A DNA stretch of 32,319 bases from UHGV virus genome UHGV-0201657; one strand, written 5' to 3'. Below, one piece after another: positions 18,001-24,000 of the stretch (position 1 is the first letter of the stretch; each line of letters opens with the position of its first letter). The DNA comes from a virus. Made by a program: the position numbers.

Positions 18001-21000
18001 TACGCTGATCAGGAGGTGAGTATTGGAATACGGTTTTGCCATTTATAACAGAAATAACGTTAATGTTACGGGCGTGCTTACTCCCATATTTTTCCTGGAC
18101 AGGTTTACGGCGGAGTCGGGATCAAAAACGTATACGAATAAACCAGAAGGGAAAACATTGCAGGCAGTCTGTTCATTATTTCCGTGGAATAATGTATTTA
18201 AGGACCGGAAAGTACCGAAGATAACCATTAATGGCAATACGGTGATGTGGTCAAATCTTGAGCAGGGGATGGGGTCATATATTTATACATTCTGGGGGTG
18301 AGTTGTATGTATGGTTTAAGCATTACGAAACCAGATGGCAGCTTGTGGATAAGCCCGGGGTTTACGCCTCAGTGTCTGATCAATAAGGGAACTATTCCGG
18401 CGACTGAGAAGGCTTTTTTTAAAACGTCAATTCCGTCAGGAAAAAGTTGTTTTTTCTTTATCAGAACAGAGAAGAAGGCCGATGTCATGTACACGCATGA
18501 ACAGATTGATGGATATCATGCCTTAAGGCTTCATCAAATTGTCAGGGGAACGAATCCTGGTGTTACGACTGTTTATGCTTTTGCGAATATGGTTACTCAA
18601 CCTTCTGAGTATGGTATCGCCATGTATAATCCGTTGGGTGAGATGATTTACCATGGCGAAATGATGCTGCTTGACGCGAAGTTAATACCTGTTGATATCA
18701 AATTTGAAAAGGACCTTGGATATCCATGCGCAATTATGCCTGCACTGGTCGGGTATTATAACTGGAAAAGAACTCCTTATGATCGACCGATTTATACCAC
18801 ATCCACTGGCGCTACAGGAAATAAAATATATTCCTGTGAGCATTATTCAGGTGGTGCAACATGGGATATTCGAAAGCCTTATGTAGACAAAGTTCTTGTT
18901 ATTAATACTTCAATGTATGATTAGCACAATAAAATTTATCAATCATTTTAAGAAAAATTTTTATTTTTTATTTCCAGGCAGGATGGTAAATAATCAAAAA
19001 TGTGGAAAGGACAGAGAGAACAATGTTTTTAATATAGGAAGATTCTTAAAATGAAAAGTATCACAAAATTTCTTGTGTGCGCAACTCTGGGCTTAGGTGG
19101 ATTAACTGCACAGGCACATGCTGCATCTGGTGATAGTACCGTATCCCTTGGATTCGCTCACCTTCAGCTATCCGGGCTGAATAATTTTGTTAAGGATTTA
19201 AGTCTTCATAACCTTGATACCTTTAACAATTTTGTGAATGAAAACTATTTCAATTCACCTGGAGAATATGACGATGCGTTTGTCCGGGGCCATGATGGTA
19301 AAGAGAAAAGTCCCTTGGGAATGAACATTAAGTATCGTTATGAGATTACGGATGAGATCGGTGTTATAACCTCTTTTGCATGGGCTCGATCCATGACTAA
19401 TGCACAGGCATTCATTGATGTTAAGCCTTCCGATCCATCACGAGAGGTAAAAAAACCGGCAGCTTCAGCGAGAACTGATATCAGGGCTAATTACTGGAGT
19501 CTACTATCCGGTCCTTCGTGGCGGTTTAATGAATACCTCAGTGTGTATTCAATGGCAGGTGTTGCGGTTGCAAAAGTAACTTATGATTTGAAAGTTAACG
19601 ACAATCTTAATGGTGGTGTAGGTAGTTTTTCTGAAAGTAACAGCACCAAAAAAACGTCTATTGCATGGTCTGTCGGCGCGCAATTTAACTTCAATGAAAG
19701 TGTTACTATGGACGTCACTTATGAAAGCTCAGGCTCTGGCGACTGGAAAACTGATGGTTTATTTGCAGGCATTGGCCTGAAATTCTGAGTAATACCCGAC
19801 AACATGTCATAACCCGCTGTGATGGCGGGTTTTTTGTTGCCCGTGCAGGGCAAAAATCGTAGATTATGCGCGGGTGTCTTTCGGCTGATGGCTGGAAGGT
19901 GAACCTGAAGGCCTGATGTGGAAAGGCCCCGAGTCAAACATTTTGTTTAACCCGAGGCCCTAACCATCATACCTTAAGCAAGTAGAAGGTTAGCGCCTCT
20001 CCACTCAGGAGGCAAGCGCTATGTCGCAAAAATCGCTCATCACCGTCACAATTTGTATGACGGTAATCTTCACCATCTGGATGTTACACGGCTCGTTGTG
20101 TGAGTTCCGGCTGAATTTGTGGGGAGCGGAGTTTGCGGCGTTCTTACAGTGTAAGCAGTAGGAAAACCGCGACGGGGACGAAAGTCCCCGTCAACTGGTT
20201 GCTGAGGTTCAGCCGATATGGCACCCGTTTCTGGTGAGAGAATGGACGACAAAATTCTCCGGTATATGCAGCGTGTTGTGAGAAATTCCCGCAACCCTGA
20301 ATTTATGAATGAAGTTAAAGACGCCTGCCTTAAAAAGCAGGCGTTTTGTTTTGAGGCACCTGATGGCTTTCTGGTGCTGCGTTCTGTGCTCAGTGCTGAT
20401 GGTATCCCTTATGTTTTGGTGTTGCTGGGCGTGTGTACGGGGAGTAACAGCGTTGAGCGTTATCTGCCGGAGGTGAAGACATTAACCCGTCTGGCTGGCG
20501 GACGCTGGGCTGAATTTCATACGGCAAGACGGGGATTTATCCGGCTGGGAAAACGTCTGGGCTTTGAGCGAATGCCGGATGATGAGGATGGCTTCATGGT
20601 GTTCAGGATAGCGGTCTGACTGCCACTGTATTCATTATCGTGTGTAAACCAATTGCAATTCACATTCTGACCCTGCCCCGGCAGGGTTTTTTGTTATCCA
20701 GGGGGCCATAATGGGCGGAAAAAAAGGCGGTGGTGATACCAAAGTAAAACCAACAGCAGCGCAAATAGCACAGGAAGAAGTGGCCTGGAAAGGGTGGCAG
20801 GATTATCAAAAAATCCTCCGCCCGGCTGAAGATAACTTCATGGAAAAGGTCGATGACCTGAACAGTGAGCAGCAGTACGACAATATTGCTGGCACCACAA
20901 ATCTGGGGTATCAGAAACAGTTTGGCGAAGCACGGAAGGAGCTGGCGGGTAATCTTGCTCAGTCCGGTGTTGACCCGTCCAGTGGTCGCTTTAACGCGGT

Positions 21001-24000
21001 AATGAATGCGAACCAGAGTGATCAGGTAACCGGGCAGATTGACACAACCACACGGGGGCAGGTATCGCAGGCAGATAAGTATGTTGCCGGGCTACAGGAT
21101 GTTGCTGCTCTCGGTTCTGGTCAAAAGGCGGATGCGTTACAGAGTTTTAACTCGCTGGCAGACAGCAGTCTGGCAAAAGCTAAATCGGACGCACAGGCTG
21201 CGTTTACGAAACAGCAGGGGCGAGCCTCTCTTGTTGGCGCTGGTTTGGGTGCGGTAGGTGCATATGCGATGTATAAGGCTGGCGGTAGCGGAGGAAGTGG
21301 CGGTGCTAAAACACCTGGCACCGGCGCTAATGCCATTCAGCATCAGGCTCAGAACTGGAGACTGTGATTATGGAGTACGGTAAATACGAAACACTTGCGA
21401 GATACGGTTATACCGGAGCTGCCCGTCCACAGGGTGACTGGCAGACGTCAGCAGCGCTGACACGCCAACAATACGACGACTGGCGAACCAGATATTTGCC
21501 CCGCGTGGCAAGGCTGGCTGACCTTGGCGAGAACAACAGCCTGATGAATGCACAGCTTGCCCGGGTGGGCGGCCTTGCCACTTCCAGTCTCCGTACAGCG
21601 CAGATGGCGCAGGATAACCAGATGGCGAGATACGGGGTAAGCCGCCCGGATAATCCCAACAGTAACACACTGGGTTTGCGTAATGCTCTGGCAATTGCTG
21701 GCGCGAAAAATGGTATCCGTGAAGCAGAGCAGGATCGCCAGATGAACATACTGACGGGGGCTTCTGCACCTGCAAGACAACAACTGAGTGTTGGCGGAAA
21801 ACTGGTGTCAGCGTAAGGGGGCAATATGGGATACGGTTTACTGGATATTGCGAATCAGTCGCGGCGTGAGGCATTACAGGGAATAAGTGATGCCGACAGA
21901 CGACGTGAAGAAATTGAGGCCGCGAACAAACAGATGGCGGCGCAACAGAAAGCGCAGAACAAACAGAATATCGGCACGGGAATTGGTACGGGTGCAGCTA
22001 TGGGCGCTGCTGTTGGTGGTCTCCCCGGTGCGGCTATTGGTGCTGTCATAGGTGGTATTGCTGGTTCTTTGTTTTAAGGAGTGGTGAATGAGCGGATTTG
22101 CACAGGGTTTACTTGCCGGATTCAGCACGGTTGACCAGGCAATGACCCGTCGTAAGGAACTTGGTTTGCGAGAAGCACAGCTTGCTCAACAACAGAAAAA
22201 TAACGAGCGCGATTTTGAATTTGCACAGTCGCAGTTTGAACATAATAAAGACGTTGATCAGCGGAACTTTGATTACAGAGCCAAAGTCGACGACCGTAAT
22301 TATGCACTGCAGGAAAGGGAGTTTAACGCCAACCAGAATTACCGGAATGCGTCGCTGGGTATGGAGCAGCAGCGACTCCGGATGCAGAAATACAACCAGC
22401 GACGGCTTGAGTATAACGATATGCTGGCGCGCGATCAGCGTGTGATGGCGGCGCTTGGAAAGGCTGTGGATGCTGGCGATCGGGATGCAGCAATGCGTCT
22501 TTACGGCCAGTTGTCAGAGGGTAATCCGCTGAGGCTGATGGCGAATGATGGCTATGTAGCGAAAGCGGGTCAGGCCGTGAACAACCTGCAAAAAATCTTT
22601 GATGACAAGCCAGACAGGGCTATCGCTTCACTTAATACGCCGGAGAATCTTGATGTCCTTTCCGGGGTGTTTGGCCCGGAACTGCAACAGCGTATTGGCA
22701 TGCCCGATTCAACCGGGAAAAAGACGATAAAAGAGGCCAGGATTGGCAGTATAGTACCGGCACAGCAGGAAGGGTACATACTTATCGGCCTTGATCTCAC
22801 ATACAGTGATGGCTCTACAGCACATAAACCCGTTACGGAATACGGCAGTGCACATCCTGATGATCAAACCGTGCTGGCGGTGCCTGTTGATAAGGCTGTT
22901 GAGCTTGTCAGGGAACGCAGTAAATTCGCGGAAATTTCGAAAAATTTCGGCTATTTCACGCCGAAGCAGCAGGGACTTTCTGCGGATCAACTTCAGAAAG
23001 GAGCCAGCCAGGTAGCGATAAAGGTTGCACAGGACGGCGGTGATGCGCAGGGAGCAGTGACGCAATATTATGCTTCGATGGGACTGCCGCAGTATCAGCA
23101 GCAAATTCAGCAGCAAAAAATTCAACAAGGGATTACCAGTTGGGCGGGTGATGATCCGGATAAGCAGGCATTTGCCAGAGAAGTGGCCTCCCGTCAGCCA
23201 GAAATGCTGGAGCCTCAGAATCAGAAATTGCTGGAACACGGGTATGCGAATTTTCTCCGTATTCAAAAGGCCAGGGAGGAACAGGCCAGGGATGATAGCG
23301 CGGCCTCTGCATCTGAGTTTATCCGTGGTCTGAAACAGAATTACGCGCAGTAATTCACCATTCCCGTTAATACTATTTCCTGATACCCGGTCATTGTGCC
23401 GGGTTTTTTTATGGAGTCTGTATGGCTTATTCCGATGAACAGCGCCCTGAAGCGCAATTTGGCAACCAGAGCCGCAACAGCCTGAACATTCAGCAGCCGG
23501 GAGAGACTGACAGCTATGATGTGTTTTTCTCCGATCCCAATCGCTGGAAGGACAACAGCACGTCGTTCAGCCTGGGCGATGTATTGCCAACTATGGGGAA
23601 AGGTGTCGCCCAGTCCGTCCGGGGGACAGGGGAAATGGCCCGTGGACTCGGTGATGCGATGATTCAGAGCCCGGTAAAAACAGGGGTACGTATTTTAAAT
23701 GAGTTCAGCCGTATGGGGCTGCCGGGAGTCGCAACTGTTCAGGATATTTTTGTCGGTGGCAGCAAGGGGGCGGATGAGGTCATCGACACTCTGCCTGATG
23801 GAAAAAATGCGGTTACTGATACTGTCGGTAAAGGTCTGAAGGTCACAGGCAAGGCCGTCAGTGGCGGCGCTAAAGCCTCGGATGAATGGCTGACTGGCAA
23901 GATGTCGCCGGGGGCGCAGCGGGCGCTGAATACACCGATGACTGAAGGATATGATGATTCAGCGGTCTGGGTAGCGAAAGGGGTTAACCTGATTGGTGCG

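Follow-up and report, generated by a model that had tools for sequence, protein, structure and literature searches.

Four small late proteins encoded ahead of a giant polyvalent protein in a 933W-like podophage form a probable internal virion (ejection) protein set

In podophages, the ejection proteins have been described in a review of the class as the products of a small operon that encodes a gp14-like protein of ~200 amino acids (aa), a gp15-like protein of 431-982 aa, and a larger gp16-like protein, with homologues often matched by size and synteny and not by sequence. The records of three such phages place these genes after the tail-tube or needle genes: the order is 11, 12, then 13, 14, 15, 16, then 17 in T7; 4, 10, 26, 14, then 7, 20, 16, then sieA-mnt-arc-ant, then 9 in P22; and gp54, gp53, gp52, gp51, then the giant gp50 in N4. 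Here we describe four small + strand genes at positions 20711-23353 of the virus genome UHGV-0201657, a stretch of 32,319 nucleotides (nt) that we call the window, where they lie directly upstream of a giant open reading frame (ORF). The window region matches 186 phage records at 92-95% identity, almost all of them from Shiga toxin (Stx)-converting phages of the 933W/Sp5/phi24B type (Sepvirinae), and it is present in 424 of 5,426 complete Escherichia coli genomes, in some at 100% identity. The four belong to the late genes of a podophage similar to 933W. Shiga toxin genes are disseminated by Stx phages of this short-tailed type, and this block would be a parts list for the passage of DNA across the envelope after recognition of BamA.

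The genes, their deletion phenotypes, and the presence of their products in virions have already been published. Their assignment to an ejection set, the six-gene extent of the block, its conservation across genera, and the lack of cysteine (Cys) described below are not stated in the papers on Sp5 and phi24B. We conclude that the four small proteins together with the giant protein probably form an internal virion (ejection) protein set that serves DNA delivery. This is based on their presence in virions without mention among the modelled parts of phi24B and on the essentiality of the 421-aa and giant proteins without a packaging defect. Fixed synteny with an encapsidated giant protein, a layout like that of the class, the lack of cysteine, glycine zippers, and a long helix point in the same direction. 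The four would thus be sequence-orphan members of a known functional kind, which are expected in a podophage and are here unlike the ones that have been studied. The features discussed are as follows.

20218-20619, + strand: 133-aa ORF (Sp5 ORF75/ECs1237; phrog_610), first gene of the six-gene block.
20669-20688, + strand (to 20693 with its T-run): terminator-like hairpin between the 133-aa and 218-aa genes.
20711-21367, + strand: gene for the 218-aa protein (Sp5 ORF76/ECs1238; phi24B gp51; phrog_611).
21370-21816, + strand: gene for the 148-aa protein (Sp5 ORF77/ECs1239; phi24B gp50; phrog_596), 150 aa if started at the GTG at 21364.
21826-22077, + strand: gene for the 83-aa glycine-zipper peptide (Sp5 ORF78/ECs1240; phrog_594).
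22088-23353, + strand: gene for the 421-aa protein (Sp5 ORF79/ECs1241; phi24B gp48; phrog_601).
23385-23404, + strand (to 23411 with its run of seven T): second terminator-like hairpin, before the giant ORF.
23422-31776, + strand: gene for the giant polyvalent protein of 2784 aa (Sp5 ORF80/ECs1242; phi24B gp47), last member of the block.
19051-19788, + strand: lom moron (Ail_Lom, 105 bits), context outside the module.
20021-20161, + strand: hok-like moron (HOK_GEF, 33 bits), context outside the module.

The gene order in the window is needle, needle-tip genes, lom and hok, and then the genes for the 133-, 218-, 148-, 83-, 421- and 2784-aa proteins. The gaps that separate the 218-, 148-, 83-, 421-aa and giant genes are 2, 9, 10 and 68 nt, with a Shine-Dalgarno-like sequence at each. 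For the second gene the ATG at 21370, which follows a GGAG at a distance of 10 nt and serves as the annotated start in relatives, is more likely than the GTG at 21364. The four small proteins are 83-97% identical to phi24B vb_24B_44-47 and equal in length to the products of Sp5 ORF76-79; a published supplementary table lists ORF76 at 218 aa, ORF77 at 148, ORF78 at 83, ORF79 at 421 and ORF80 at 2793 aa (PMC5155283), and Sp5 ORF76-80 are exactly the block found in the window. Searches of Pfam and NCBIfam gave no family above cut-off for any of the four small proteins, and their PHROGs (611, 596, 594 and 601) are all of unknown function. Glycine-zipper segments occur in three of the four.

A preprint on phi24B combines cryo-electron microscopy with mass spectrometry on one purified sample (bioRxiv 10.64898/2026.04.10.717836). 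The total peptide-spectrum matches (PSMs) reported for virions were 10,962 for the giant gp47, 1,634 for gp48 (the 421-aa protein, with a clear gel-band peak), 523 for gp51 (the frame with the 218-aa gene, also with a gel-band peak), 129 for gp50 (the frame with the 148-aa gene), and 13 for an 86-aa frame with the 83-aa gene (10.64898/2026.04.10.717836). All four small products were therefore detected in virions, three of them abundantly and the 83-aa protein weakly. The last 37 residues of the 83-aa protein form, as read from its sequence, one hydrophobic tryptic peptide, and a low count is expected because very few of its peptides are usable. In the batch virion sample the PSMs were 179 for gp48, 82 for gp51, 83 for gp50, 6 for the 83-aa protein and 101 for the portal (10.64898/2026.04.10.717836). 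When batch-sample PSMs per residue were scaled to 12 portal copies, we obtained crude values per virion of ~37 copies of gp48, ~32 of gp51, ~48 of gp50, ~23 of the giant and ~6 of the 83-aa protein, which are good only to a factor of a few; the same scaling gave 6.2 for the nozzle (true value 6), 22 for the fibre (18), and 10.7 and 2.5 for the two adaptors (12 each).

The preprint models the capsid, cement, decoration, portal, two adaptors, nozzle, fibres and needle, and proposes gp47, which is abundant yet absent from the maps, as an encapsidated ejection protein (10.64898/2026.04.10.717836). Its main text makes no mention of gp48, gp50 or gp51, and a 'homolog of a bacteriocin' was treated there as a contaminant solely because of its annotation (10.64898/2026.04.10.717836). 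From a count of the supplement rows, gp48, gp50 and gp51 appear to belong to its '15 candidate structural proteins'. Thus, only the giant is named there as an ejection protein, three abundant virion proteins are left aside, and a fourth is dismissed. By elimination from the modelled parts, the four proteins would be located in the lumen of the capsid or tail. The phi24B virion has a T=9 capsid with an N4-like major capsid protein and has GP4 as its closest structural relative, and the dataset includes ~36,000 spontaneously emptied particles, which make up ~40% of the preparation (10.64898/2026.04.10.717836).

In-frame deletions across the late region of Sp5 were made by Mondal et al. 2016 with K-12 MG1655 as the host for the essentiality data (PMC5155283). 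Deletion of ORF79 or ORF80 (dORF79, dORF80) led to zero plaques and zero lysogens, and both were complemented in trans. These mutants nonetheless contained DNase-resistant packaged DNA at wild-type amounts in normal-looking heads. Deletion of ORF76 markedly reduced lysogenisation, with lysogens recovered from concentrated lysate only, and ORF75, the 133-aa gene, was outside the nine essential genes (PMC5155283). A requirement for infectivity and not for head assembly or packaging is found for the 421-aa gene and in part for the 218-aa gene; the 148- and 83-aa genes had no phenotype.

With the 421- and 218-aa proteins as tblastn queries, distant homologues turned up in Aeromonas phage phiARM81mr and ~100 Vibrio phages. 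The phiARM81mr genes run tail-tip fibre, p64 (119 aa), p65 (212), p66 (124), p67 (85), p68 (466) and p69 (3190). In Vibrio phage D60 a tail fibre is followed by genes for 62, 131, 201, 117 and 77 aa, an opposite-strand HNH gene, and genes for 467 and 3066 aa. Each block member in these two phages, including the counterpart of the 133-aa ORF, is a BLAST homologue of its window counterpart. Two metagenome contigs, reached through homologues 25-27% identical to the 421-aa protein, have a needle gene followed by genes for 119, 210-221, 125-126, 79-86 and 501 aa and an ORF for a giant protein exceeding 4,175 aa, all members being homologous. The lom and hok genes are absent from the upstream edge of the block in the Aeromonas, Vibrio and metagenomic relatives. 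The conserved unit is thus six genes long and comes right behind the needle or fibre gene, as seen in phiARM81mr, ~100 Vibrio phages and the two contigs; Stx phages have gained lom and hok in front of this unit, and within it a hairpin has arisen between the 133- and 218-aa genes. The 218-, 421- and 2784-aa series matches the layout of the class, plus two extra small genes.

The HNH endonuclease gene of the Vibrio phages lies on the opposite strand between the 77- and 467-aa genes (OZ195685.1, 20933-21724). The phiARM81mr genome (KT898134.1) contains a retron-type reverse transcriptase and a gene for a 23S-IVS protein among its tail genes (11972-13605), possibly a diversity-generating retroelement, and an unannotated gap of ~1.86 kb between p68 and p69 (22779-24636) that may hold the missing N-terminal part of the giant.

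The first-pass annotation of the window, made from sequence, had described a four-gene operon bounded upstream by a terminator at 20671-20693 and separated from the tail genes by a lom/hok island. The four ORFs, their tight packing, and the island were all recovered. At the terminator we found a terminator-like hairpin with a T-run, at 20669-20688, and it is not the upstream boundary, since the 133-aa ORF belongs to the same block. The second terminator-like hairpin, at 23385-23404, had gone unmentioned. As an operon the four genes are too narrow a unit: no sigma-70-like promoter was found in a search ahead of them, and the conserved block has six genes. The position of the block had been called unusual on the grounds that the ejection genes of podophages usually sit between the capsid and tail genes. 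That assumption is contradicted by the T7, P22 and N4 records given above, and in relatives the block comes right after the needle or fibre gene, so that the arrangement in Stx phages reflects merely a moron insertion.

Lambdoid late genes are transcribed from pR' by a Q-modified, terminator-resistant polymerase. An analogous terminator, t-late, is annotated in the P22 record as antiterminated by gp23. Because late transcription is Q-antiterminated, the hairpins at 20669 (GACCCTGCCCCGGCAGGGTT and TTTTGTTATC; eight pairs, five of them GC) and at 23385 (ACCCGGTCATTGTGCCGGGT and TTTTTTATGG, within the 68 nt that separate the giant ORF from the 421-aa gene) are not limits of the lytic operon. Most likely, both curb read-through from moron promoters in the lysogen. 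In this scheme the hairpin at 20669 would shield the virion genes from lom/hok transcription in the lysogen, and Q-antiterminated late transcription would pass through it. The gap in phiARM81mr that matches the site of this hairpin is only 8 nt long. The hairpin at 23385 might lower expression of the giant protein relative to the upstream genes. On the best reading, the four genes are not an operon by themselves, nor are they an accessory system of the moron kind.

The four small proteins and the giant contain 0 Cys in 3,654 residues, compared with 49 in 5,103 (0.96%) for the other structural genes of the window, where the tail nozzle has 8 and the adaptors 4-6. About 35 would be expected, with a Poisson probability of zero of ~1e-15 (~2e-4 for the four small proteins alone). 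The corresponding block proteins are equally Cys-free in phiARM81mr (0/4,077; other virion genes 0.78%), Vibrio D60 (0/3,928; 0.69%), and the Bcep22-like or GP4-like phages DC1 (0/5,509) and Gamede (0/5,429), and the pattern is repeated in the two metagenome contigs; the non-virion genes interleaved in relatives do contain Cys. The known ejection proteins behave in the same way: P22 gp7/20/16 have 0/1,309 (other virion genes 0.85%), N4 gp50/51/52 have 0/4,294 (0.68%), and T7 gp15/16 have 0/2,065 (0.60%), with one in the 196 residues of T7 gp14. For any single small protein this signature is weak because several ordinary virion proteins are also Cys-free, and for the whole set and across phages it is strong. 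A plausible explanation is that residues able to form disulfides are avoided in proteins that thread a channel of ~3.5 nm and then act in the oxidising periplasm. Neither the N4 2026 paper nor the P22 2021 paper was found to mention such a signature of ejection proteins, and a literature search did not bring one up; it may still be published. Total absence of Cys might be used as a general way to predict ejected proteins from sequence alone where homology fails.

The 421-aa family comprises 73 representative clusters at 50% identity, and a 48-sequence alignment from this 50%-clustered library was the input for an AlphaFold2 model with a mean predicted local distance difference test (pLDDT) of 85.8. 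The model has a helix at residues 4-128 that would be ~18 nm long if straight, an alpha/beta core at ~130-290, and a helical C-terminal region. The N-terminal motif G-x3-G-x3-G-F is conserved (G3 in 34, G7 in 44, G11 in 46 and F12 in 36 of the 48 sequences), and a motif akin to it also heads the positional counterpart in Bcep22-like phages. Searches of the PDB gave zero solved relatives for this protein. Homology between its family and the 513-528-aa (~520-aa) 'virion structural protein' of Bcep22-like and Ralstonia phages was considered and is not established, as the alignment covers no more than an N-terminal motif of 25 residues (E 0.02).

Within the Stx phages the 421-aa protein, with ~70-95% identity and several allelic types, is far more variable than the 218-aa protein (84-99%) or the C-terminus of the giant (~97%). 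In a large group of Stx2a-converting phages (LC6160xx series) the 421-aa orthologue is split after about codon 84 by a ~1.26-kb IS3-family insertion sequence (IS) element, seen in LC616032.1 (1688-4220) as ORFs with HTH_Tnp_1 and rve domains. Given the phenotype of Sp5 dORF79, IS-split prophages should make no infectious particles though they remain toxin-inducible. Thus, for the many sequenced Stx2a prophages with an IS in this gene, induction and toxin production should occur and the formation of infectious particles should fail.

The 83-aa protein is predicted to be a glycine-zipper membrane-active peptide. The GxxxG zipper that the first-pass annotation saw in it lies in a strongly hydrophobic C-terminal segment (residues 53-83; 19-mer Kyte-Doolittle value 1.71) with repeated GxxxG that is conserved in the Aeromonas and Vibrio orthologues. 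The Gly/Ala segment it saw at the C-terminus of the 218-aa protein (residues 172-190) is likewise present and conserved, but it is weakly hydrophobic (19-mer value 1.04) and is not a canonical transmembrane helix. The 218-aa protein is 96% identical to phi24B vb_24B_44. Its AlphaFold2 model is all helical and unreliable (pLDDT 42.7) and was not used for a fold search. Its family is homologous to the 277-331-aa 'virion structural protein' of Bcep22-like and Ralstonia phages (hhalign 96.4%, E 1e-9, with reciprocal PHROG matches), and one of these, Gamede gp39, shares its first residues, MGGKGGGD, with the 218-aa protein and has at its end a glycine zipper such as that of the 83-aa protein. The 148-aa protein is 97% identical to phi24B vb_24B_45 and has orthologues in Aeromonas (47%) and Vibrio (23%) phages; in profile comparison its family aligns weakly with the core of the 218-aa family (hhalign against DC1 gp64, 71%, E 4e-5).

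The giant protein is, by its domain content, a polyvalent protein as Iyer et al. 2017 use the term, with several LPD and effector-type domains encoded among virion genes. Its Pfam scores are all above cut-off (LPD38 161.8, LPD5 147.4, LPD1 80.8 and MuF_C 61.3 bits). The C-terminal ~900 aa are conserved (41% in Vibrio phages, 28% in Ralstonia and Burkholderia phages), as are the N-terminal ~560 aa, which are 25-29% identical to those of the giants from Vibrio phages and metagenomes, and the middle, which holds LPD5, LPD1 and MuF_C, is variable. The protein also contains a HEWFH motif and a glycine zipper at residues ~409-425 that resembles that of the 83-aa protein. LPD38 has been described as phage-specific, and the polyvalent class has been proposed to deliver effectors with the DNA (Iyer, Burroughs, Aravind 2017).

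The first gene of the block differs from the others. Homologues of the 133-aa ORF lie immediately upstream of the 218-aa homologue in phiARM81mr (p64, 42% identity, E 3e-27), Vibrio D60 (D60_0015, E 3e-4) and the two metagenome contigs (39-41% identity), and its product has 3 Cys, unlike those of the downstream block genes. It gave no family in Pfam or NCBIfam and was not seen in the portion of the phi24B 'Proteins by Sample' table that we examined. The product is probably not a virion protein and is a candidate non-virion assembly or modification factor. The ORF occupies the slot held by an N-acetyltransferase in Bcep22-like and Ralstonia phages, and several block proteins begin with Met-Gly. 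We considered whether the 133-aa protein is a degenerate GNAT that acylates the N-terminal Met-Gly of block proteins, and rejected this, as Pfam, hhalign and PHROGs were all without support; the hhalign probability against the Bcep22-like acetyltransferase was 0.1%, and the two belong to separate PHROGs (610 and 4470) with zero cross-hits. The correspondence would therefore be one of position.

Taken together, these properties suggest a sequence of events for the ejection set. The proteins would be held disordered inside the capsid or the portal-tail lumen and, after release of the needle, would exit through the tail channel before the DNA or together with it. Three glycine-zipper segments could then insert into the envelope membranes, one at the C-terminus of the 83-aa protein, a weak one near the C-terminus of the 218-aa protein, and one in the N-terminal G-x3-G-x3-G-F tip of the 421-aa protein, and the ~18 nm helix predicted for the 421-aa protein may contribute to a structure that bridges the periplasm. 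The giant protein and the DNA would go through afterwards. A bolder version, which we hold tentatively and consider possible rather than probable, is that phages of the 933W/phi24B type and their Aeromonas and Vibrio relatives share a five-protein, Cys-free ejection apparatus unrelated in sequence and fold to those of T7, P22 and N4, in which an essential protein of ~420-500 aa spans the periplasm and has a conserved glycine-zipper, 'fusion-peptide-like' N-terminal tip on an ~18 nm helix, the membranes are opened by small glycine-zipper proteins, a polyvalent effector of ~300 kDa is threaded through, and the absence of Cys is a general predictor.

Several observations weigh against an ejection set. 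The virion association and the mutant phenotypes were observed, and from these we infer an internal location, exit through the tail, membrane insertion and a conduit. The proteomics comes from a preprint and the copy numbers are crude, and the 83-aa protein has the same PSM count in phi24B virions as Lom, which is likely a membrane-vesicle contaminant. In single-sequence and profile searches of the PDB, none of the four proteins showed a likeness in sequence or fold to an ejection protein of solved structure. T7 gp14-like proteins have 4-5 predicted transmembrane helices and the 218-aa protein has one Gly-rich segment, which appears too weakly hydrophobic for a canonical one. In the long helix of the 421-aa protein neither coiled-coil periodicity nor an 11-residue aromatic periodicity was above shuffled controls. 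Several ordinary structural proteins of the window are Cys-free as well. Particles of P22 and T7 ejection-protein mutants look complete, which makes heads without fibre labelling atypical for the class. The main evidence against the ejection set, which favours or at least adds a role in assembly, is that heads of dORF79 and dORF80 were reportedly not labelled by an antibody against the tail fibre (anti-ORF67; 'data not shown'), and Mondal et al. class ORF79 and ORF80 as 'tail formation' genes; ORF77 and ORF78 are outside the nine essential genes and dispensable in the laboratory (PMC5155283).

The view of Mondal et al. leads to the strongest alternative, in which the products of ORF79 and ORF80 are tail-assembly or head-completion factors, acting as transient chaperones or minor tail parts that are not ejected. 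Heads that are DNA-filled and normal-looking yet bind no fibre antibody are what it predicts, and the genes do sit in the tail half of the late region. We consider it unlikely. A transient chaperone is not expected in CsCl-grade virions, gp48, gp50 and gp51 are unmentioned among the modelled tail parts in the preprint main text, and their crude ~30-50 copies per virion are above those of any tail protein. Like ejected proteins, and unlike the nozzle and adaptors, they are Cys-free. The labelling result was given as 'data not shown', and wild-type Sp5 tails were themselves seen only occasionally (PMC5155283). The two readings are also compatible, since the portal may need internal proteins before it binds the tail, and the 'tail formation' phenotype of dORF79 and dORF80 is possibly an internal-protein effect.

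A second alternative, which was the other possibility raised in the first-pass annotation, is that the four genes encode an accessory effector or anti-defence system that is co-injected beside the polyvalent protein and is dispensable for particle function. The giant neighbour belongs to the class proposed to deliver effectors, deletion of ORF77 or ORF78 had no laboratory phenotype, and the block adjoins the moron island. We regard this as improbable, and somewhat more so than a role in tail assembly. ORF79 is essential and ORF76 important on K-12 MG1655, the block is fixed in the morphogenesis module across genera and morons are not, and Pfam, PHROGs and NCBIfam give no enzymatic, toxin or known anti-defence domain in the four proteins. 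The two small proteins that are dispensable, of 148 and 83 aa, may still have a protective role. The first-pass annotation had put forward virion mass spectrometry, synteny across related phages, and deletion analysis as ways to decide. The published phi24B proteomics found all four products, the six-gene block is conserved in Aeromonas, Vibrio and metagenomic relatives, and the Sp5 deletions showed ORF79 to be essential, ORF76 important, and ORF77 and ORF78 dispensable. Thus, of the two possibilities, the internal virion module feeding into the giant ORF is the best-supported and the accessory system is not sustained.

It is very improbable that the 83-aa gene encodes a toxic membrane peptide of the bacteriocin or hok type and the 421-aa gene a transcription factor, with both serving lysogenic conversion or regulation: the RefSeq name 'bacteriocin', weak matches to Bacteriocin_IIc (PF10439; 19.3 bits, cut-off 27.1, E 0.0011) and E492 microcin (14.7 bits, cut-off 50, E 0.034), and a note in the phi24B record of similarity of the 421-aa protein to a transcription initiation factor speak for it, but the bacteriocin matches are below curated cut-offs and cover the glycine-rich segment only, the N-terminus (MGYGLLDIANQ...) is by its sequence without a double-glycine leader, the 421-aa protein has no DNA-binding domain and is modelled as an elongated helical protein, both proteins are in phi24B virions, and no promoter lies ahead of them. 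We rejected both database labels as sub-threshold low-complexity similarity. The RefSeq 'bacteriocin' name is a mislabel based on sub-threshold glycine-zipper similarity, and because of it the 83-aa protein was discarded as a contaminant by the authors of the phi24B proteomics.

The proposed ejection set was compared with known systems. The closest family for the 83-aa protein is that of the glycine-zipper small membrane proteins (Gly-zipper_YMGG, PF13441; 26.7 bits, under the gathering cut-off of 28.9), with which it shares the repeated GxxxG in a hydrophobic stretch over its C-terminal 30 residues. It differs in having no signal peptide or lipobox and in its polar N-terminal half of 50 residues, which is unrelated.

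In T7, gp14, gp15 and gp16 are clustered after the tail-tube genes and run from ~200 aa through a mid-size protein to the largest, as here, and gp15 and gp16 are Cys-free. The 218-aa protein is comparable in size to T7 gp14 or P22 gp7, and the 421-aa protein to T7 gp15 or P22 gp20. T7 differs in its ordered core stack, none being reported in phi24B, and its proteins have no homology to those of the window.

N4 gp52, gp51 and gp50 (gp73, gp72 and gp71 in DEV) are likewise encoded with the small and mid-size genes directly upstream of a giant gene (~3,500 aa). The N4 giant is encapsidated and invisible in reconstructions, and the likeness extends to the T=9 capsid, the N4-like major capsid protein, and the lack of Cys. 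By contrast, N4 gp50 is a virion RNA polymerase, whereas the window giant has no RNA polymerase domain and has LPD38, LPD5, LPD1 and MuF_C instead; N4 has two small partners and the window four, the small proteins share no similarity, and the window phage is temperate.

P22 is, like the window phage, a temperate lambdoid podophage. Its gp7 (229 aa), gp20 (471) and gp16 (609) are encoded distally in the late operon, after the needle gene and beside accessory genes, and show the same series from small through ~430-470 aa to the largest, all Cys-free. These proteins are required for infectivity and unresolved in virion maps, and they are present at roughly 12-30 copies per virion, to be set against the crude estimates for the window orthologues. 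P22 has three proteins and not five, no last member like the 2784-aa polyvalent protein, and no sequence or fold similarity, and the reported lack of fibre labelling of Sp5 dORF79 heads is a further difference from it.

A similar arrangement is found in the Bcep22-like and GP4-like phages (DC1 gp64; JC1 gp64, gp68 and gp69; Gamede gp39, gp41 and gp42), which have the same block order with a giant containing LPD38 at its end. In Ralstonia and Burkholderia phages the genes run nozzle, small protein, N-acetyltransferase, 277-331-aa protein, PAPS reductase, 513-528-aa protein and giant, so that, unlike in the window, an N-acetyltransferase and a PAPS reductase are interleaved. Mass spectrometry of virions of JC1, a Bcep22-like phage, found gp64, which is the homologue in the 218-aa family, gp68, a counterpart by position, and the giant gp69, and did not find the acetyltransferase or the PAPS reductase. 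In these phages the homologue of the 218-aa protein has extra length and a strong glycine zipper at its own end, so that separate 148- and 83-aa genes are absent, and their block proteins are Cys-free, as in the window.

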